Positions 2,325 to 48,429 of a stretch of DNA of 64,000 nt are shown one piece after another. The position numbers and the translations under genes were made by a program. The stretch lies in the sequence record NC_019500.1; one strand, given 5' to 3'. Position 1 is the first letter of the stretch, and each line of letters opens with the position of its first letter. Source of the DNA: Escherichia phage Bp7. The notes beneath the pieces are model-generated. The model made no database searches. It was not told the DNA's origin and saw nothing but the letters and a program-made list of their open reading frames with translations.

Positions 2325-2827
2325 GTACCTTTAACTTCCATAAGAACATGGAAATCATGGAAGGTAATGCTAAGATTATGAAGTTCATTGCACGTGATGA
2401 ACAGCTCCACCTTAAAGGCACCCAGTACATTATTCGTCAGCTCCAACTTGGTACTGATGGCGACGAATGGGTTAAAATTGCTCAAGAGTGCGAACAAGAA
2501 GCAGTTGATATTTTCATGGAAGTTAACCGTCAAGAAAAAGAATGGGCCGCTCACCTGTTCAAAGATGGTACTTGCCCTGGATTAAATACTCAGAACATGG
2601 GTGCTTTTGTCGATTACCTGACAGTTTCTCGTATGAAGCAATGTGGCTTACCGTGTCCTATTACTGATGCTCCTACTCGCCATCCTTATCCTTGGATTCG
2701 CGAATACCTGAACTCTGATGCTGTACAGGCTGCTCCTCAGGAAGTGGAAATCAGTTCTTACCTTGTAGCACAAATTGATAACGATGTTGATGAAAAAGTA
2801 ATGGCATCGTACAAGAAATATTTTTAA
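2325..2827 (+). CDS. nrdB: Ribonucleotide reductase small subunit NrdB, exon 2
   Basis: TFNFHKNMEIMEGNAKIMKFIARDEQLHLKGTQ... to C-terminus; matches NrdB iron-ligand region. Confidence 0.8.
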
Positions 2828-2854
2828 GGAATGGGGCTTCGGCCCCTTATTGCT

Positions 2855-3268
2855 ATGAAAGAAATCGCAGACGAATTTAGCTTTATCAAGTACGTCACCC
2901 TAGAACTCCAAGATGACGCCACCATAGCTCCACTCACAGTACCAAATAAACAAAATGTCATATATGCTATAGCGGTTGATGATATACTAGTCTACGTTGG
3001 GAAGACTAAAAATCTTCGTAAGCGCATCAACTACTACCGAACCGCTATTAATCGTAAGGACCAAACGTCGGATTCGACTAAGTCCATTCTGATTCATGAA
3101 GCATTAATGGCTGGTAAAAAGGTAGAGTTCTATGCACGGCAGTGCTTTAATCTGTCGATGACTAACGAACTTGGAACTATGTCAGTTGAGACCATGTCTC
3201 TTGAAGAGCCAATGTTCATAAAGAAATTTAATCCACCTTGGAATACCCAACACCGATTAAAAGGATAA
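2855..3268 (+). CDS. denA: Endonuclease II DenA (GIY-YIG family)
   Basis: MKEIADEFSFIKY...YAIAVDDILVYVGKTKNLRKRINYYRTAINRKD; strong similarity to T4 DenA; start taken at internal ATG matching T4 N-terminus. Confidence 0.85.
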   Translation: MKEIADEFSFIKYVTLELQDDATIAPLTVPNKQNVIYAIAVDDILVYVGKTKNLRKRINYYRTAINRKDQTSDSTKSILIHEALMAGKKVEFYARQCFNLSMTNELGTMSVETMSLEEPMFIKKFNPPWNTQHRLKG

Positions 3269-36710: not shown

Positions 36711-38270
36711 TTAGATACCTTTAACATATACGCGACGGAAGTAACCATTCAGACCAAGGCTGTTAACGATGTCAGGCATACCATTCTGGATACGTTTGGT
36801 AGGAGCCTGAGCAGCAGGGTCAGCGAACGGGTTGATACCGATACCGTAACGAGTTTTGAAGCCCATTACCGGTTGGAAGTTCTTCGGATCGGAACCACGC
36901 AGCGGGGTCAGTGCAACGTACGGAGCATAGTAGATACCTGCGTCCATTTCGTTAGCGCCTTTATAACCAATGGTGAAGTAATCGGAACGTGCATACTGGT
37001 CGATGTAAACGCGATATTTACCACCAAGAACACCGGCAAATACTGCTTTGGTTGTGTCAACGTTGAAACCTTGACCCAGACCTTGAGCTGCATAACTTAC
37101 AGAAGTATCAACTGCAGCCAGTACGTTAACTACGTTACGGGAAGCGATGATGAAGTTACCAGCACCACGACCGGTCTGACGAGCGATTTCCGCTGCTTCT
37201 TTATCAATCTGGAACAGAAGGGCTTTAAAGCTCTCACCGGCCCAACGAGCACCACGGATATCAATCGGGTCCTGGAAGTCAAACACACCAGCTTTAGCGC
37301 CGACGGTGTTAGTCATACCAGATTTACCAACCTGTGCAGAGTAGTTAATCCAATCGATAACTTCACGGTTGATTTCGAGCATAATTTCGGTAGCAAGGAT
37401 ACCGGACAGTTCAGCATCTGCATCCATACCGTGTACTGCACGAAGGTCCTGTGCCAGTTCGATAGAGTAGCTTGCTTTCAGCTGACGGGATTTAGCTTCG
37501 ATAACTTGTTTGTCGATGCGGAAGCCCATTTCGTTCCACGGGTTATCGGTAGAACCGTTAAAGCCTTCCTGAAGTTCAGCGATAGAAGTAGCCATACCTT
37601 CAGCCAATTCAGCCAACTTACCAGCTTCAATCAAAGCGGTAACAGCAGCATCCAGTTTAGCGGCATCAGTAGCAGCAGCATCAACGGTTACAGCTTCAAC
37701 AGCCTGGAAGTGTGCAGCACCGGTAGCTTCGAAGAAGTGGGAATAAATTTTACCAACTTCCAGAACTTTGCTTGCAGCCAGTGCTTCGAAAGATTTAGCA
37801 GCACCCTGACCAGAGAACATAGCGTCCGGAGAATACATCGGATGGAAAGCTTCTTTAGCGCCAGCAGCGATAGGGTCTTTACCATAAACTGCACGAAGGG
37901 CAAATACCTGGCCGGTAGGGTTATTCAGAGGCTGAACACCACAAATGTCAAAAGCAATCAGATGAGGAATAGCACGACGAACCATACCCATTACTGCCGG
38001 CCCAATCTGAGTTACAGCACCAGAAGTCTGGCCAGCTGCGATATTGGTAGCATCATAACCGTGGTCACCACCGATTTCAGCTTCGGTCAGGAAAGAACCA
38101 AATGCTTCAGAGATTTTTTCGTCACGATATTCCGGAGCAGTCAGGATGTCTTGTTCCTGGTTTTCGAAAATTTTAGCGATGATAGCTTGTTTAGAAGCAC
38201 CAACGATTTCAGGAAGAGCTTCGTTTTCCAGCAGAGCGGACCATTTTTGAACTAATGCATTCTTTTTCAT
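36711..38270 (-). CDS. 23: Major capsid protein gp23
   Basis: 519 aa; long identical stretches to T4 gp23 (GDHGYDATNIAAGQTSGAVTQIGPAVMGMVRRAIP..., C-terminus RVYVKGI). Confidence 0.95.
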   Translation of the reverse strand: MKKNALVQKWSALLENEALPEIVGASKQAIIAKIFENQEQDILTAPEYRDEKISEAFGSFLTEAEIGGDHGYDATNIAAGQTSGAVTQIGPAVMGMVRRAIPHLIAFDICGVQPLNNPTGQVFALRAVYGKDPIAAGAKEAFHPMYSPDAMFSGQGAAKSFEALAASKVLEVGKIYSHFFEATGAAHFQAVEAVTVDAAATDAAKLDAAVTALIEAGKLAELAEGMATSIAELQEGFNGSTDNPWNEMGFRIDKQVIEAKSRQLKASYSIELAQDLRAVHGMDADAELSGILATEIMLEINREVIDWINYSAQVGKSGMTNTVGAKAGVFDFQDPIDIRGARWAGESFKALLFQIDKEAAEIARQTGRGAGNFIIASRNVVNVLAAVDTSVSYAAQGLGQGFNVDTTKAVFAGVLGGKYRVYIDQYARSDYFTIGYKGANEMDAGIYYAPYVALTPLRGSDPKNFQPVMGFKTRYGIGINPFADPAAQAPTKRIQNGMPDIVNSLGLNGYFRRVYVKGI

Positions 38271-40201: not shown

Positions 40202-40446
40202 TATTCGTCGTCCTCGTCATCATCCGCATCGTCAGATTCTTTTTTGTCTTTCTTATCTGCTTTATCGGATTTTTCGTCGTCTTCGTCATCTTCGTCAGCT
40301 TCTTCGCCTTCAATCATAACGGAGCGAGCAATTTCTGCTTTACGGGCTTCAATCAAAGCGGTTACTCGAGATTCGATAAGCGGGGCTGCTGCTTTACGAA
40401 CTGCTACGAGGTCGTTTGATTTAATAGCTTCGATTAAATCTTCCAT
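40201..40446 (-). CDS. 67: Prohead core protein gp67
   Basis: 81 aa with poly-acidic C-terminus; synteny. Confidence 0.75.
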
Positions 40447-42019
40447 TAGAAATCCTCTTCTTCTTCATCTGGGTTTTGGAAACGAGCCTCTTTAGACTCT
40501 TCTTCAATTTGCTTAGCTTCTTGATTAATTTCTTCGTCGGTCATTTGGAGGAAATCTTTCATAGCCGTTTGATGTGAAATGTACTTACCAATAAATGGTT
40601 CAGCCATCGTTAGCATATTGATTCTGCGTTCCATGATTTCAGCATCTTTCATTTCACTGAAATAGCTATCACGGTTAAACGTAACTTTAATATTATTTAT
40701 TTCCTTTTCCCACTCATCTTCTGTAATAATCTTTTTAAGAATGAGGTTTGTTTTTAACGGGTCTAGGAAAATTTCTTCAAATTTGTTTTGTAGTTGACGA
40801 ATCCATTTAGAGAATTTTAATTCGTCACGAGTGATTGCTGTACCGGCATCAAACATAACACCAGAATTAGACTCGCTAGGGATACGTGATTCAGGAACAC
40901 GCAACGCACGGTAAAGTGCTGTGCGGAAATAAAGAACGTCATCCATATCACTCATACCAGTAGCACCTGGCATTGTATCAACTTCTGTTACCGCTTTACC
41001 ATCACGACGTTGCAACCAATAGTCTTCAGTCATGGACATATTGTGTTGTTGGTTTTTAATTTTACCTGTCGAAGCATCATACACCACACGGTTTTTCATC
41101 GTGTTCATGATATGTTGCATTTGTGCTGCAGCCTTACGTGAAGGCATATTACCTGTATCGATATAAAACACACGACGGTCAGGAGCACGTGTAATACGGT
41201 AGATGACCATTGCGTCTTCCATCAATTTAAGCTGGTTTGCAGGCTTAATAGCACGTTGCAAATAGCCAATGATGTTTTTACCACAACAATCTAATAATCC
41301 AGAATGAGCATAAACCACTGCAGCACGAGGAATTTTAACTTTAGTCCCGGCTGAATAAATGCGTCCATCTGCGCAATAGCTTTCATGACCTGTGTCGTAA
41401 ACGAAAAACTCGCGATATCCGTCTACAACTTTAACGCCATCTTCCATACGTGTAACGATTTCACGAATATATTGGACTTGGCGTGGGTCTAAGCGACGAA
41501 GCTCTTGTACGCCATCTTTCATTTTTTTAGGGTTTATAATTTTATGAAAGAAAATTCTTGAGTCTACATACCAGCGTTGGAAATGGTCAGTGCCTTTACG
41601 TTGGAAATTTAAAAGGTTTAAAACTTCACTGAATTCGGCCAAGATTTTATCTTTAATTGCTTGACTAAATTCTGTCCCGTCTAAATTCAATGCAACTACT
41701 TCTTTATCATCTCATAGACAATAGCGTCAGACACAATTTCCTGTACGGCGTTGTCGACTTCATAGTTGTTCATTAAATTACGGTAGGTATCAATAAGTTC
41801 CCTGGTATTTTTAACTTCAGGCTCATTACTACCAAACATCTGTTGCATAAGAGCATTATAAGGAATATTTTGCTCTTGTGTCTCAATTTCGCGAGCGCCA
41901 TCATCAAGCTTAGGTGCGGTGACAGACTCTAAATTGTTATTAATTTGTTGTTTGAATTCTTTTTCGTCTTCATTAGCCCATGGCTTAAGAAAACTTAATA
42001 TTGTATTAAAGTTTGCCAT
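40446..42019 (-). CDS. 20: Portal vertex protein gp20 (apparent 1-nt frameshift near 41711)
   Basis: Two adjacent ORFs (41696..42019 and 40446..41690) together match T4 gp20 end to end; break falls between ...[10 protein letters not shown] and [11 protein letters not shown]. Confidence 0.85.
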
Positions 42020-42067
42020 TAGAGTCTCCGATGAATGGGATAAGGAGCCGAAGCTCCTTGATAATTC

Positions 42068-42075
42068 TATTTATA
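42068..42075 (-). promoter_or_regulatory. Late promoter TATAAATA (minus) for gene 20
   Basis: Exact octamer. Confidence 0.5.
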
Positions 42076-42076
42076 C

Positions 42077-42658
42077 TCATTCATTTTCATGTTTGTGATA
42101 ACGTGTTATAGCCGAACGAGTTGATTCAACACCACAGATAGGGCAAATCATCCTTGGCTGATTAATCTTTTTGCCTTTAGCCGGATGTTCTTTACCAAAC
42201 ATCGGATTACCTTCACCAGACATAGCTTTGGCTTGGTCTGGTCGCTTACGTCCTTTTAGAGCTTTAGAATGTTCAGGCCTCTTTTTACCTAACCTACAAT
42301 CTCTTTGTAGCTGTTTGGCATGTTCACTCATTGGAATCCCTTTACGAGACATTCCAAAGAACCCGTCAGGCTGAGCTAATGACATATTTATATAGTTTTT
42401 AGATTTAACTACATTATACTTTATTTGAAGCTCTTTCTCAGCTATACGAGCTTCTTTATCGGTTTCAAATAAAGATAAAATTCTGGTTTTGAAAAGGTGC
42501 GGATTTTCTTTACGTTCTAGATTCCAAATCTTTTTATATGCTTGGGATAATACAGAACCATTATATCCTTCTTTGAGAATCCTTTCAACGTATGTTGAGC
42601 CAATATAACGACGGGGTAGTTTAGACCCCGTGTATATGGTTAAGTAAGTACAATACAT
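42077..42658 (-). CDS. GIY-YIG homing endonuclease (Seg-like), free-standing between genes 19 and 20
   Basis: 193 aa; N-terminal TYLTIYTGS...RRYIGST GIY-YIG motif; Lys/Arg-rich DNA-binding C-terminus. Confidence 0.7.
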   Translation of the reverse strand: MYCTYLTIYTGSKLPRRYIGSTYVERILKEGYNGSVLSQAYKKIWNLERKENPHLFKTRILSLFETDKEARIAEKELQIKYNVVKSKNYINMSLAQPDGFFGMSRKGIPMSEHAKQLQRDCRLGKKRPEHSKALKGRKRPDQAKAMSGEGNPMFGKEHPAKGKKINQPRMICPICGVESTRSAITRYHKHENE

Positions 42659-42688
42659 TCTAAACTCCTTGACTTCATTGTTTGAATG

Positions 42689-42696
42689 TATTTATA
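42689..42696 (-). promoter_or_regulatory. Late promoter TATAAATA (minus) upstream of GIY-YIG ORF
   Basis: Exact octamer. Confidence 0.45.
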
Positions 42697-42725
42697 CTAT
42701 CATAATTTGCTATAAAAGTAAAAAC

Positions 42726-43217
42726 TTATTCCCACCAGTCAATAGCAAATGTGCTTTCAAATGTTTCTACCTCGTTATTCGAGTCCCAGTCCATCTGGAC
42801 TTCACCAACGTTAGTAGGCCATAAGCCGTAAATTGTAACTTCTTTGGTCACAGTCTTGCCGTCACGATGGAACTGGCGAACTACTGCTTGTTTCTTATAT
42901 TCTGCAGGTGCTGCACCGGTAATTTCATTGGTCATACCGTGACAGAGATTCTGCCAATCGACAATTGCTTGACGGGTGTCATGTGCATCATCGTTATAAA
43001 TGGTAATTGTCCAATCATCAAACGTACGGTCACCAGCTACGTTAATTTTACGGTTCATGTAGCCAACCGGTACTTTTTCTACAATGCCTGCCGGCATAGG
43101 GGCTGCTTTACATTTAAAGCTAAAGTTTTTACCGAGAAATGGAATTTCCACTTCGAAAAGGTTAGGGCGTGCAAAGTCACCTGACTCGAAGGCCCTAGTG
43201 ATATCGGTCAACTCCAT
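42726..43217 (-). CDS. 19: Tail tube protein gp19
   Basis: 163 aa (T4 163 aa); synteny. Confidence 0.85.
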   Translation of the reverse strand: MELTDITRAFESGDFARPNLFEVEIPFLGKNFSFKCKAAPMPAGIVEKVPVGYMNRKINVAGDRTFDDWTITIYNDDAHDTRQAIVDWQNLCHGMTNEITGAAPAEYKKQAVVRQFHRDGKTVTKEVTIYGLWPTNVGEVQMDWDSNNEVETFESTFAIDWWE

Positions 43218-43254
43218 TGGCGACCTCCATCTAAGTTAAATTCTTGATAAGTTT

Positions 43255-43926
43255 TCATGATAGTTTTCCATTTGGTTGTTTTGATTCAATCATATTTATA
43301 AGAGTTTTTAAGCTCATCCCACAGCCATCTGATTTGGAAAGATTTTCTTCCCACGGAATAATTTGCAAGTTACAAATATGGCCTATATGTTCTGCGGGTA
43401 TTTTATTATCATAACCAAATTTCTTAGATATTATATGGTCTAATTGATAAGCACCTTTGACTCCGCACTTGCCTATTTTAGTAAAATTCTTCATTTTACT
43501 TATTTCATTTCTATATTTATACTGATGACGCTTGACATCCATACAATATTTATGATATTTTTTCTTATCAATCCAGTGTTCTTTAGATTTGAGACCTTTA
43601 CCTGTTCTATTTTTGGAAATTTTAGGCCCTTTGGTTTTACGGATTTTTATGCCTTCATCAGAATTCCAATATTCTTTTCTTGTTTCTGAATAGACTTCCC
43701 AGCGATGTTCTTTACAGAACTTAGAATTTGTTTCATTAAGACGTCCTTTTGTTACAGTATAATAAGTGCCACATTTATCACATTTACATGTAACAGCAAT
43801 TTTTCCAGGACAATCTTCTAATTTTATTAAATGAGAGCTTCCACTTTTAACTTGATATCCGAGATTTTTAAAAGCAGAAACATTGCGATTCGTTATAGGT
43901 ATTTCAAATAGAGTATTAGTAATCAT
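43255..43926 (-). CDS. HNH homing endonuclease, free-standing between genes 18 and 19
   Basis: 223 aa; QLDHIISKKFGYDNKIPAEHIGHICNLQIIPWEENLSK HNH motif; Cys-rich N-terminus. Confidence 0.7.
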   Translation of the reverse strand: MITNTLFEIPITNRNVSAFKNLGYQVKSGSSHLIKLEDCPGKIAVTCKCDKCGTYYTVTKGRLNETNSKFCKEHRWEVYSETRKEYWNSDEGIKIRKTKGPKISKNRTGKGLKSKEHWIDKKKYHKYCMDVKRHQYKYRNEISKMKNFTKIGKCGVKGAYQLDHIISKKFGYDNKIPAEHIGHICNLQIIPWEENLSKSDGCGMSLKTLINMIESKQPNGKLS

Positions 43927-43931
43927 ACTTA

Positions 43932-43939
43932 TATTTATA
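43932..43939 (-). promoter_or_regulatory. Late promoter TATAAATA (minus) upstream of HNH ORF/gene 19
   Basis: Exact octamer. Confidence 0.45.
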
Positions 43940-43948
43940 TACCAGAAA

Positions 43949-43977
43949 GTCGCAGGATTGAGCCTGCGACGTTTTTA
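43949..43977. terminator. Hairpin GTCGCAGG...CCTGCGAC + T-tract downstream of gene 18
   Basis: 8-bp perfect stem. Confidence 0.4.
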
Positions 43978-44107
43978 GTTATACAGTTGATAAATCATAT
44001 TCCTAAAGAATAATCAACCCCAGGCGCAATTCTGCGTGATGTACGCTGTAACCAAACTCATGGTATAATGGTTTTAGGTTCTTTATATTACAGCCTGGGA
44101 TAATAGA

Positions 44108-46090
44108 TTATACTAAAGGTCCAATCAATTCATCAAAGTCAGCACCAGTGCTCGTCGCGACGAAATTCAATGTAATATAGTTAATACTGCGAGCAGGTTT
44201 AACATAGATATTAGCAATAAACTCGTTACGGTCGATAACCGCAGGGGTGTTCACTGTAGTATCACAAACCACACGTCCTTCATAAATCCCACCAAGTGCC
44301 TTAATACCATCTAAGTACTGAGAAACTTCCATACGGAAGCTTGAACGAGTGAAGTTGTCGTTCAATTCAAACAGTTTATATTTAGAGGCATCACCGATAT
44401 TTTTCTTAAGCATGTTGAACAGACGGCGAACGTTAATGTGGTCCATCGGAGATGGAACTTTGGTTGCAGTCTTATCACCAAACAATACGAAACCATCGCC
44501 ACCAGCAAAACCAACAACCGGGTTAATAGCTTCTTGGTACATGCGGTCACGTTGAGCTTGGCGCGGTTCAATTGCCAATTTCAGAACGTTAAGAATCTGG
44601 CCACGGTTATAACCTGCCGGAGACATCCAAGGCTGAGAAACATCATCAGTACGTGCACACAAACCAGCCATATCAGCGGCCAGAGGCACCCAACGGTTTA
44701 CGTCATTATATTTGTCATACTGATATTTATAGTTACCATCAATAGCAGCATAAGTGGTGCTAATGTTCATGTTGTTGGCATCGAAAGTACCTGCACCGGT
44801 ACGCCAGTCGATAAGATTATCTACTGCACGAGTCAATGGAACGTTAACCAACAGTCCTTTAGGAGGAGAAATAAATGCCAAGCAATCCTGACGTTCATCA
44901 GCAATACTAACAACGTGTTTCTGGACTGTAGAAGCAACTTCATCACCTTCACCAGCAACAGCACCAGCAATCAAAAGGTTAATATGGAGTGCTTCACGGT
45001 CGGCAAACAAATCCCAACCCTGCATCAAATCACCTGCAGTAACCTGGTCGTTAGCAGATACACCACCCATAAGATTGATGATACCACTAAAACCGGCCGG
45101 CCAGTTCAGAGAGGTAGCGAAGATATAGTTAGAAGTACCTTTAGCGAAATAGTCGTCAAGATAAATGTTATTACCGTAAACGTCTTTTTCACCTTCTTTG
45201 GTAGAAAGTACGACAGATTCTACGATAGCGCCGTCACGACGAACAATAATCGCGTATTGGTCATCTGTTTGTGGGCCGTAATTAAATACCGCCTTGGCAA
45301 TAGAAGCACGAGTACCGCCATTTGGATAAATATCCAACATTTTAGTAGAACCAGCGTCATAAGCCGCTTTAGAAACAATTTCAACTTCCAGAGTACTACC
45401 AATTTCACCAGGATAAAGGGCGACCACACCAGGCATACCAAACTGTTTAAGAGATGCTTGGAATTCCAGGGAAGTAATAACTTCTTCACTGTTCTCTGCT
45501 TCAGTCAACAGAATACCGGAATCGGTTACAATTTTACCGACAGTAATAGTACCAGAAACACCGGAAGAGGCAGAAGTAACTTCAGCAGTCCACGCAGGGC
45601 CTAGGTTCGGATACTGGTTAACAGAACGAGCATAAGAAATAATCTTGCCGGTAGGAATAAACACTGATAGAATTTTACCGTCTGTATCGACCGAAGTTAC
45701 ACGACCTTCAGATTCAACAACAGTCTGGTTATATTTGATATTAATTTTATCACCTACCGCATAGTTAGAACCTGCAGTAGTAATAGTGGTTTGGACGTTA
45801 CCTGCTACCGGAGACGCGTTTTTAGCGAATTCACGGTTAACAACACGAACAGTACGAAGGTCGTTACCATACTGGAGGAAGTTCATACCCGACATGAAGT
45901 AATCAGCAACTTCGTTATTAGGACCTCCAAATAAGTCGACCAGTTCAACTTCATTAGTAATCTGAGTTACCTGGAAAGCAGGGCCCCACTGGAATTTACC
46001 AACCAGCGCTGCACGACCCGTTGCGTTACGAACGACAGTACTCTGTACGGACGTTTCTTTGAGCTCAATGCCCGGTGATAATAAAGACAT
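44108..46090 (-). CDS. 18: Tail sheath protein gp18
   Basis: 660 aa; synteny and size. Confidence 0.9.
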   Translation of the reverse strand: MSLLSPGIELKETSVQSTVVRNATGRAALVGKFQWGPAFQVTQITNEVELVDLFGGPNNEVADYFMSGMNFLQYGNDLRTVRVVNREFAKNASPVAGNVQTTITTAGSNYAVGDKINIKYNQTVVESEGRVTSVDTDGKILSVFIPTGKIISYARSVNQYPNLGPAWTAEVTSASSGVSGTITVGKIVTDSGILLTEAENSEEVITSLEFQASLKQFGMPGVVALYPGEIGSTLEVEIVSKAAYDAGSTKMLDIYPNGGTRASIAKAVFNYGPQTDDQYAIIVRRDGAIVESVVLSTKEGEKDVYGNNIYLDDYFAKGTSNYIFATSLNWPAGFSGIINLMGGVSANDQVTAGDLMQGWDLFADREALHINLLIAGAVAGEGDEVASTVQKHVVSIADERQDCLAFISPPKGLLVNVPLTRAVDNLIDWRTGAGTFDANNMNISTTYAAIDGNYKYQYDKYNDVNRWVPLAADMAGLCARTDDVSQPWMSPAGYNRGQILNVLKLAIEPRQAQRDRMYQEAINPVVGFAGGDGFVLFGDKTATKVPSPMDHINVRRLFNMLKKNIGDASKYKLFELNDNFTRSSFRMEVSQYLDGIKALGGIYEGRVVCDTTVNTPAVIDRNEFIANIYVKPARSINYITLNFVATSTGADFDELIGPLV

Positions 46091-46119: not shown

Positions 46120-48429
<2,310 letters not shown>

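Follow-up and report, generated by a model that had tools for sequence, protein, structure and literature searches.

Two probable free-standing homing endonuclease genes flank the tail-tube gene of the T4-type Escherichia phage Bp7

How did the small tail-tube gene of a T4-type phage come to be flanked on both sides by genes that most of its close relatives do not carry? The question is raised by a stretch of 64,000 nucleotides from Escherichia phage Bp7 (sequence record NC_019500.1; hereafter the window, meaning the whole stretch). The window is that of a Dhakavirus, i.e. a JS98-like T4-type coliphage, with its late genes on the minus strand. In it, gene 19 lies between two open reading frames (ORFs), here named ORF-A and ORF-B. 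A first-pass annotation, made from the letters alone, had taken them for a GIY-YIG (Seg-like) and an HNH homing endonuclease gene, respectively. Both were confirmed in place and gene order by the ORF list, with the neighbors gp20, gp19 and gp18 recognized by Pfam:

42077-42658, minus strand: ORF-A, 193 amino acids, between genes 19 and 20 (ORF list).
42726-43217, minus strand: gene 19, tail tube, flanked by both endonuclease genes (Pfam Phage_T4_gp19, E 2.8e-10).
43255-43926, minus strand: ORF-B, 223 amino acids, between genes 18 and 19 (ORF list).

We consider it likely that both ORFs are free-standing homing endonuclease genes (HEGs), recently acquired by a backbone like that of phages WG01 and IME281, with expression confined to late times; their nuclease activity, their targets, the transcript starts and the translational control we infer from sequence.

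Comparison of the 18-19-20 intergenic regions across T4-like genomes, a check that the first-pass annotation had proposed, revealed a mosaic of HEG presence and absence at both junctions. Neither ORF was found in JS98, JS10, WG01, IME281, AnYang, MX01 or IME08; in these seven phages gene 19 adjoins gene 20 across a spacer of 57 bp, and the 18-19 spacer measures 185 bp. Both ORFs were present in vB_EcoM_005 and IME540, and QL01 contained ORF-A plus a different ORF-B relative, located at the gene-18 end of the spacer. Megablast of positions 41600-44200 matched 51 phage records, nearly all of them Escherichia Dhakaviruses, and most of these records spanned only 46% of the query, i.e. they were devoid of both ORFs. 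The distribution is thus sporadic, with carriers amounting to about 4 of some 40 Dhakaviruses. The ORF-A protein was 100% identical across the four carriers, whose backbones differ, and flanking DNA about 100% identical to that of the window was found in the HEG-less phages WG01 and IME281.

Beyond the Dhakaviruses, full-length orthologues of ORF-A occupied the 19/20 junction in phages of three other genera, namely Kosakonia phage 305 (71% identical), Citrobacter phage Moon (66%) and Acinetobacter phage AB-Navy4 (52%). Relatives sharing only the nuclease half of ORF-A occupied other loci, and the 19/20 junctions of JS98, PP01, VR7, Mokit and WSPA were unoccupied. The 148-nt spacer between genes 19 and 20 of Salmonella phage S16 (3737-3884 of the retrieved locus) was recognized as the remnant of a deleted ORF-A cassette, whose first ~100 nt and last 57 nt matched the Moon cassette at 86 and 98%, respectively. 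What is left comprises a head resembling a promoter, ~17 initial codons that are no longer in frame, and the final 57 nt, so that a cycle of invasion, decay and loss is visible at the 19-20 site. No paper dealing with endonuclease genes at the 18/19/20 junctions came up in full-text searches of the literature.

The alignments delimited the ORF-A insertion and its surroundings as follows:

42076-42724, minus strand: ORF-A cassette, an insertion of 649 bp relative to HEG-less Dhakaviruses (junction alignments with JS98, vB_EcoM_005 and QL01; blastn).
42738-42789, minus strand: donor-type tract at the gene-19 3' end, with 8 fixed synonymous differences.
42068-42075, minus strand: native late-promoter box of gene 20, intact directly after the ORF-A stop.

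The cassette is bordered by the 8-bp repeat GAAT(A/G)AGT, each boundary being thus ambiguous by ~8 nt, and the ORF-A stop codon falls exactly at the place of the gene-19 stop in JS98. Fixed differences between the four ORF-A carriers and seven non-carriers were sought in an alignment covering window positions 40446-46090 (~5.6 kb). Only 8 were found in the whole alignment, all within the last 63 nt of gene 19, all synonymous and at third codon positions, and present in 4/4 carriers and 0/7 non-carriers. Apparent fixed differences at 43508-43892 were discarded as artefacts, since cassette DNA had been aligned there to unrelated intergenic DNA. When WG01 and IME281 were compared with the window in bins of 150 bp, identity was 100% in most gene-20 bins and in the gene-19 bin 42846-42995, and it fell to 88% only in bin 42696-42845, next to the ORF-A cassette. 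Judged by these differences, the tract represents a donor patch of minimal size within a backbone that is otherwise roughly identical, the kind of trace that double-strand-break repair from a carrier would leave. Its position makes a cut by ORF-A inside gene 19 likely, and 42738-42789 is a candidate region for the recognition or cleavage site. A precise loss of ORF-A by WG01 would leave unexplained the presence of the common non-carrier haplotype in the WG01 tract. Together, the sporadic distribution, the orthologues at the same locus, the donor patch and the S16 remnant support, by comparison, the homing-type mosaicism that had been proposed for this cluster.

The ORF-A protein comprises an N-terminal nuclease domain (residues 1 to ~100), NUMOD3-like repeats and a C-terminal CxxC...HxH finger, and it falls in PHROG 314, 'homing endonuclease' (E 1e-29). 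Residues Y9, G11, Y18, Y32, G34, S38, E48, E74 and N91 were invariant in 35 homologues. The tyrosine motifs T-I-Y9 ... Y18-I-G, ~10 residues apart, stand at the N-terminus, GYxGS is also present, and E74 and N91 are, by position and predicted fold, the counterparts of the catalytic Glu and Asn of I-TevI (E75 and N90). An AlphaFold (AF2) model had a predicted local distance difference test score (pLDDT) of 84 overall and above 94 in residues 1-90. When this model was compared with the PDB by Foldseek, the top three matches were the I-TevI catalytic domain (including 1ln0/1mk0), with probabilities of 0.99/0.84, E values of 0.035-0.14, a modest statistical support, and template modeling scores of 0.52-0.58; the GIY-YIG domains of UvrC and Slx1 came further down the list. 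In the family of 35 members, NUMOD3 was detected in 30, a C2H2-type finger in 6 and, weakly, SegE_GIY-YIG in 15 and PF01541 in 3. ORF-A thus resembles T4 SegA-G and I-TevI in its GIY-YIG-type domain, for which I-TevI gave the best fold match, and in its NUMOD3 and zinc-finger DNA-binding parts. Judging from motif and predicted fold, we accept ORF-A as a divergent Seg-like GIY-YIG enzyme lying below curated thresholds, in agreement with the first-pass annotation. In the RefSeq records of vB_EcoM_005 and QL01 the protein is named 'HNH endonuclease' (1979-2560 of each retrieved locus), and the HNH-like relative of ORF-B is left as 'hypothetical'; the former label looks wrong.

On the other side of gene 19, the alignments gave a different picture:

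43218-43973, minus strand: ORF-B cassette, 756 bp, in place of the ~60-bp native gene-19 late promoter and leader (alignment to HEG-less Dhakaviruses).
43188-43206, minus strand: synonymous differences in gene-19 codons 4 and 8-10, found only in carriers of the window's ORF-B type.

Homology to JS98 breaks off within the late promoter native to gene 19 and is regained at the ATG of that gene; the window has neither the native promoter nor the leader hairpin seen in JS98 and WG01. The ORF-B cassette has therefore replaced the native promoter and leader hairpin. Insertion between conserved structural genes, as originally described for both ORFs, applies to ORF-A but does not hold for ORF-B as a simple insertion. 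At the gene-19 start, the encoded protein was identical in 11/11 phages and the DNA downstream of the codon 10 changes was invariant, and 43188-43206 is a candidate region for the ORF-B target. Because synonymous differences cluster in the last 63 nt of gene 19 for ORF-A and in its first 10 codons for ORF-B, the targets of both enzymes would probably be the ends of gene 19 and not intergenic DNA. The expectation that each enzyme cleaves a cognate intergenic site is thus probably not correct.

ORF-B falls in PHROG 5104, 'unknown function' (E 6e-66), together with relatives named gp19.1 in VR7 and T6. Its N-terminus contains a zinc ribbon (C49, C52, C71, H74), with a CxxC...Cxx(C/H) pattern common to 26 homologues, and its C-terminus an HNH-like (H-N-N) domain at about 43312-43572, with D163-H164, N186 and N195. 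The invariant core of the 26 homologues reads GAYQLDH...NL...W..N..K (Q161, D163, H164, G171, N186, L187, W192, N195), and D163-H164, N186 and N195 were also invariant in 36 more distant relatives. Alignment of the ORF-A and ORF-B families thus showed intact residues in both, with none of the catalytic-residue loss that the first-pass annotation had named as a sign against its proposal. In a model of ORF-B (pLDDT 86), D163-H164 ends strand 160-164, N186 precedes strand 187-191 and N195 lies in helix 192-198, a predicted placement that corresponds to the beta-beta-alpha-metal layout. Foldseek with this model gave a list led by Cas9 HNH domains, although not significantly. Alignment by hhalign to residues 783-908 of SpCas9 (sequence verified against PDB entries) paired D163-H164 with D839-H840 and N195/K198 with N863/K866 (P 0.0016); the catalytic residues of SpCas9 are D839-H840, N854, N863 and K866. 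ORF-B (D163-H164, N186, N195, K198) thus shares with the Cas9 HNH domain (Pfam HNH_4) the spacing D-H ... N-x8-N-x2-K. The likeness is at the level of the motif, the distance from D-H to the first Asn being ~8 residues longer in ORF-B and the context and partners entirely different. Weak matches to HNH_4 were obtained for 4 of the 26 relatives, and to HNH for 2.

A profile of the ORF-B nuclease domain matched at least 3863 clusters at 50% identity among 1.84 billion representatives. In a sample of 36 distant relatives, none had a Pfam model over the nuclease domain, and the N-terminal partners were helix-turn-helix modules, NUMOD3, DUF7487 or zinc ribbons, an interchangeability that matches the modular build of homing endonucleases. 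When this profile was run against the PDB, only leucine-rich repeats were recovered; these were rejected, since 'PxEIGxIxNLQxIPWxxN' resembles a leucine-rich repeat unit by chance, and PDB sequence searches with both proteins and both family profiles gave nothing meaningful. With the T4 Mob proteins and I-HmuI/I-TevIII, ORF-B shares the H-N-(N/H) beta-beta-alpha-metal motif, a sporadic distribution and its status as a free-standing phage gene. T4 Mob proteins have an N-terminal HNH domain and a C-terminal DNA-binding region (PMC2988022). The order is reversed in ORF-B, with the zinc ribbon N-terminal and the nuclease C-terminal, so that ORF-B does not have the Mob architecture; furthermore, unlike Mob, I-HmuI and I-TevIII, it has no Pfam HNH match, its last metal ligand is Asn instead of His, and it is apparently leaderless. 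As to the proposal of an HNH gene between genes 18 and 19, the location stood, and the designation HNH was backed by motif and weak structural evidence and not by curated models; on that footing, ORF-B is very probably an H-N-N variant of HNH.

A late promoter of its own was the next feature claimed for each ORF. Exact copies of TATAAATA numbered 20 in the window, compared with 6.7 expected, and 0 of 100 shuffles reached 20. Sixteen of the 20 lie on the late-gene strand, six of these within 42068-43939; those at 42385 and 43514, inside AT-rich ORFs, may be due to chance. The following signals belong to the two cassettes:

42689-42696, minus strand: ORF-A late-promoter box, exact TATAAATA, 30 nt before the ATG, then a Shine-Dalgarno AAGGAG.
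42647-42698, minus strand: ORF-A read-through hairpin, in which the AUG region is paired with sequence overlapping the late box.
43932-43939, minus strand: ORF-B box, exact TATAAATA, 5 nt before the ATG, no Shine-Dalgarno sequence.
43949-43970, minus strand: terminator-like GC-rich hairpin, GTCGCAGG-CTCAAT-CCTGCGAC then TTTCTGG, at the head of the ORF-B cassette.
43293-43300, minus strand: embedded TATAAATA at the ORF-B 3' end, 83 nt before the gene-19 ATG.

The ORF-A box and the sequence downstream of it are conserved in Kosakonia phage 305, and the box is also present in AB-Navy4. The TATAAATA-N5-ATG head of ORF-B recurs in six other phages of at least four genera, with N6 in CBH8, and the whole order of GC hairpin, TATAAATA, N5 and ATG was found in vB_EcoM_005, IME540, WSPA, 4S and KMB20, again with N6 in CBH8. 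Since each box recurs at an unchanged distance in orthologues of other genera, the two are not due to chance, and the claim that each ORF is preceded by its own exact late promoter was confirmed.

The T4 late box occupies positions -13 to -6 relative to the transcription start (PMC1524935), and for ORF-A a start near 42683 is predicted. RNA reading through from upstream folded around the ORF-A AUG with -13.1 kcal/mol (z -2.1), compared with -3.4 kcal/mol (z +0.8) for RNA starting late, 6 nt after the box. The same AUG stem forms in Kosakonia phage 305 (z -2.9) and Moon (z -1.5). RNA initiated at the late promoter does not contain the 5' arm, and the hairpin is therefore predicted on read-through transcripts only, where it would hide the AUG. 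Hairpins that hide the start codon on longer transcripts are known for I-TevI, segB and mobE (PMC2988022). ORF-A is thus like I-TevI and segB in its late promoter and in its predicted hairpin, and it is free-standing between conserved genes. A second hairpin, GC-rich (ACGGGG-N9-CCCCGT, 42611-42631), was observed in codons 10-16 of ORF-A, within the first 50 nt of the coding sequence, where its GGG/CCC codons look odd for an AT-rich region. Its stem persists in Kosakonia phage 305, Moon and AB-Navy4 despite changes in the loop and in some amino acids, and in the S16 remnant it is followed by a T-run and is terminator-like; it may be an internal attenuator.

For ORF-B, the distance of 5 nt between box and ATG, combined with the -13 to -6 rule, places the predicted start at the A of the AUG (43926). 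The conservation of this spacing across phages argues for a leaderless late mRNA, although this is deduced from the sequence. We know of no description of a leaderless late mRNA for genes of T4-type phages. The terminator-like hairpin belongs to the inserted segment, because JS98 homology ends just upstream of it; in WSPA, 4S and KMB20, too, the box is preceded by an equivalent hairpin, and in the window the hairpin would insulate ORF-B from gene-18 transcripts. Other gp19.1 alleles, in QL01 (upstream of 3944) and VR7 (upstream of 2501 of the respective retrieved loci), showed a GCGCGTA...TACGCGC hairpin, a Shine-Dalgarno AAGGA and a GTG start. In VR7, TATAAATA lies inside this hairpin, and in QL01 the box is TGGTATAAT, which is extended -10-like and not a late box. 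The subfamilies thus have different expression signals. The gp19.1 proteins of T6 and VR7, annotated as hypothetical, are of the same family as ORF-B (PHROG, tblastn) and have the same 18/19 position, but those of VR7 and Tequatrovirus are about 27-35% identical to it and are preceded by a Shine-Dalgarno sequence and a GTG start instead of TATAAATA-N5-ATG. In PP01, the annotated start of the gp19.1 relative (about 2438-3043 of the retrieved locus) is an internal ATG; the conserved N-terminus of the family (VIISKFV...) is encoded from a GTG lying in frame 48 nt further upstream, and the annotated protein is probably too short.

Combined, these data are consistent with entry of both HEGs into a WG01/IME281-like Dhakavirus backbone by double-strand-break repair (gene conversion) during mixed infection. 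ORF-A would bind near the 19/20 junction of phages devoid of ORF-A and cut gene 19 at a site within about 70 bp of its 3' end. By analogy with other GIY-YIG enzymes (PMC2988022), a 2-nt 3' overhang would be left. Repair off the carrier genome would copy the 649-bp cassette along with a short tract of donor gene 19. ORF-B, with its N-terminal zinc ribbon as the DNA-binding part, would target the start of gene 19, its cassette replacing the native promoter and leader. Both ORFs would be expressed late only, ORF-A by virtue of its own late promoter and the AUG-hiding hairpin on read-through RNA, and ORF-B by virtue of the terminator hairpin followed by a late promoter set so that the transcript begins at the AUG.

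The embedded box at 43293-43300 is a possible replacement promoter for gene 19, for which a new Shine-Dalgarno GGAGG is found at 43224-43228, although it could also be due to chance in AT-rich DNA. Embedded promoters are a known feature of HEGs, and retention through them has been described (PMC2988022); mobB and mobC likewise carry promoter signals for a downstream essential gene (PMC2988022). In the alleles of vB_EcoM_005, 4S and CBH8 no other TATAAATA occurs within 160 nt of gene 19, which must therefore use the ORF-B promoter there. Conceivably, then, both genes derive from HEGs that have lost nuclease activity and are retained since their deletion would remove signals of essential neighbors, the ORF-B cassette holding the only late promoter and ribosome-binding site of gene 19. 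The loss of the native gene-19 promoter and leader, the dependence of gene 19 in those three phages and the decay of a HEG at the ORF-A locus in S16 all fit this explanation, to which we give a small but appreciable chance. Against it, neither ORF is truncated, all residues invariant in the two families are intact, and the identity of ORF-A in four differing backbones, together with the short donor tract, points to recent transfer. Moreover, the gene-20 promoter persists outside ORF-A, on which nothing essential therefore depends.

The wide occurrence of the gp19.1 family could instead mean that ORF-B is an ancestral T4-type accessory gene, repeatedly lost, which is not mobile and has a function in the cell, for instance as a regulator or in the nicking of phage or host DNA. 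The family was found by tblastn in 242 phage records, and the relatives examined, in PP01, VR7, S16, Mokit, WSPA, 4S, CBH8 and KMB20 (at least seven genera), all lie between genes 18 and 19. Such constancy of the junction, in at least eight genera overall, speaks for this explanation, as do the annotation 'hypothetical' in almost all records and the fact that no target has ever been demonstrated. By contrast, the position within the spacer varies, the gene adjoining gene 18 in QL01 and gene 19 in the window, and alleles are mosaic: compared with vB_EcoM_005, the half encoding the first ~106 residues of ORF-B is 91-97% identical in nucleotides and the nuclease half 58-60%. Carriers show synonymous clusters in the adjoining gene-19 codons, and the 3' end of gene 18 exists in several haplotypes. 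Close relatives with about 100% identical flanks are devoid of ORF-B, and the DNA-binding modules joined to the nuclease domain are interchangeable, as they are in homing endonucleases. An ancestral, immobile gene thus seems quite unlikely. In the gene-18 region 44108-44225, the last ~100 nt fall into three haplotypes, with almost all differences at synonymous sites. One is common, a second occurs in QL01, whose ORF-B relative adjoins gene 18, and in IME08, which has no ORF, and the third was seen in the window alone. The haplotypes suggest repeated gene conversion here too, and IME08 may represent an 'emptied' or resistant site.

The wider setting of the two genes is given by the following features:

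36711-38270, minus strand: gp23.
40446-42019, minus strand: gp20, portal (Pfam).
43974-44107, minus strand: resident 18-19 intergenic segment, outside both cassettes, conserved in JS98, QL01 and vB_EcoM_005.
44108-46090, minus strand: gp18, sheath (Pfam).
46123-47958, minus strand: gp17.

HK97-like phages use an HNH factor together with the packaging terminase, and ORF-B as such a factor would account for its place near the terminase and portal genes. This was rejected as highly improbable, since nothing beyond the location in the 17-18-19-20 late cluster favors it, most Dhakaviruses, including JS98, WG01 and IME281, carry the same gene 17 terminase without ORF-B, the record note for gene 17 of JS10 names the terminase's own nuclease activity, and gene 18 separates ORF-B from gene 17. 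The resident 18-19 segment, conserved across Dhakaviruses, is itself strongly structured, with a minimum free energy of -54.6 kcal/mol (z -4.55; 43900-44110 folded), and contains a long-range stem, CCCAGGC...GCCTGGG; an Rfam scan of 41900-44300, which includes this segment, gave no match.

Several observations weigh against the interpretation of both ORFs as recently acquired HEGs. As regards protein identity, ORF-A scored below the curated thresholds (17.6 bits for Pfam SegE_GIY-YIG, cut-off 25; 14.5 for NCBIfam grpIintron_endo, cut-off 56), and its family profile did not align significantly by hhalign with residues 1-97 of I-TevI (sequence verified). I-TevI R27 is a conserved Arg of the first helix with a role in GIY-YIG enzymes; its presumed counterpart, R26 of ORF-A, is in helix 24-30, but the column varies between R, K, N and S among homologues. 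In these three respects ORF-A differs from T4 Seg enzymes and I-TevI. ORF-B had no Pfam, NCBIfam or PDB sequence match, no curated HNH threshold being reached. As regards the targets, free-standing T4 endonucleases, Seg enzymes included, usually cut hundreds of bp from their own gene (PMC2988022), and a target within about 70 bp of the ORF-A insertion would therefore be atypical. No carrier-specific gene-19 nucleotide signature was common to ORF-A carriers of different genera, and the tract is therefore read as donor DNA and not as proven resistance or immunity. Finally, the sequence of the window may contain errors, because the essential gene 20 has a 1-nt deletion at about 41706-41713, minus strand (GTCTATGAG-ATGATAAAG in the window, GTCTATGAGGATGATAAAG in vB_EcoM_005, QL01 and IME540), which splits it into ORFs of 107 and 414 amino acids instead of a single one of 524. 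The likeliest causes are a sequencing error, with GG read as G, or a defective genome; programmed frameshifting was ruled out, as relatives have an intact gene.

Both genes belong to known kinds, and the understanding of homing is unchanged by them. In T4-type phages, genome mosaicism is shaped by free-standing homing endonucleases, which also account for marker exclusion in crosses; ORF-A and ORF-B are candidate examples that flank one small essential gene. WG01 and IME281, with flanks about 100% identical and neither of the two genes, constitute an unusually clean natural control, which would make target mapping and homing crosses straightforward. For gp19.1, 'hypothetical' in hundreds of phage records, a functional reading is offered: tentatively, the family may be a large group of H-N-N homing endonucleases outside Pfam cover, one subfamily of which would form a self-contained terminator-promoter-AUG cassette, specifying a leaderless late mRNA, that now holds the promoter function of the tail-tube gene and would hence be hard to lose.

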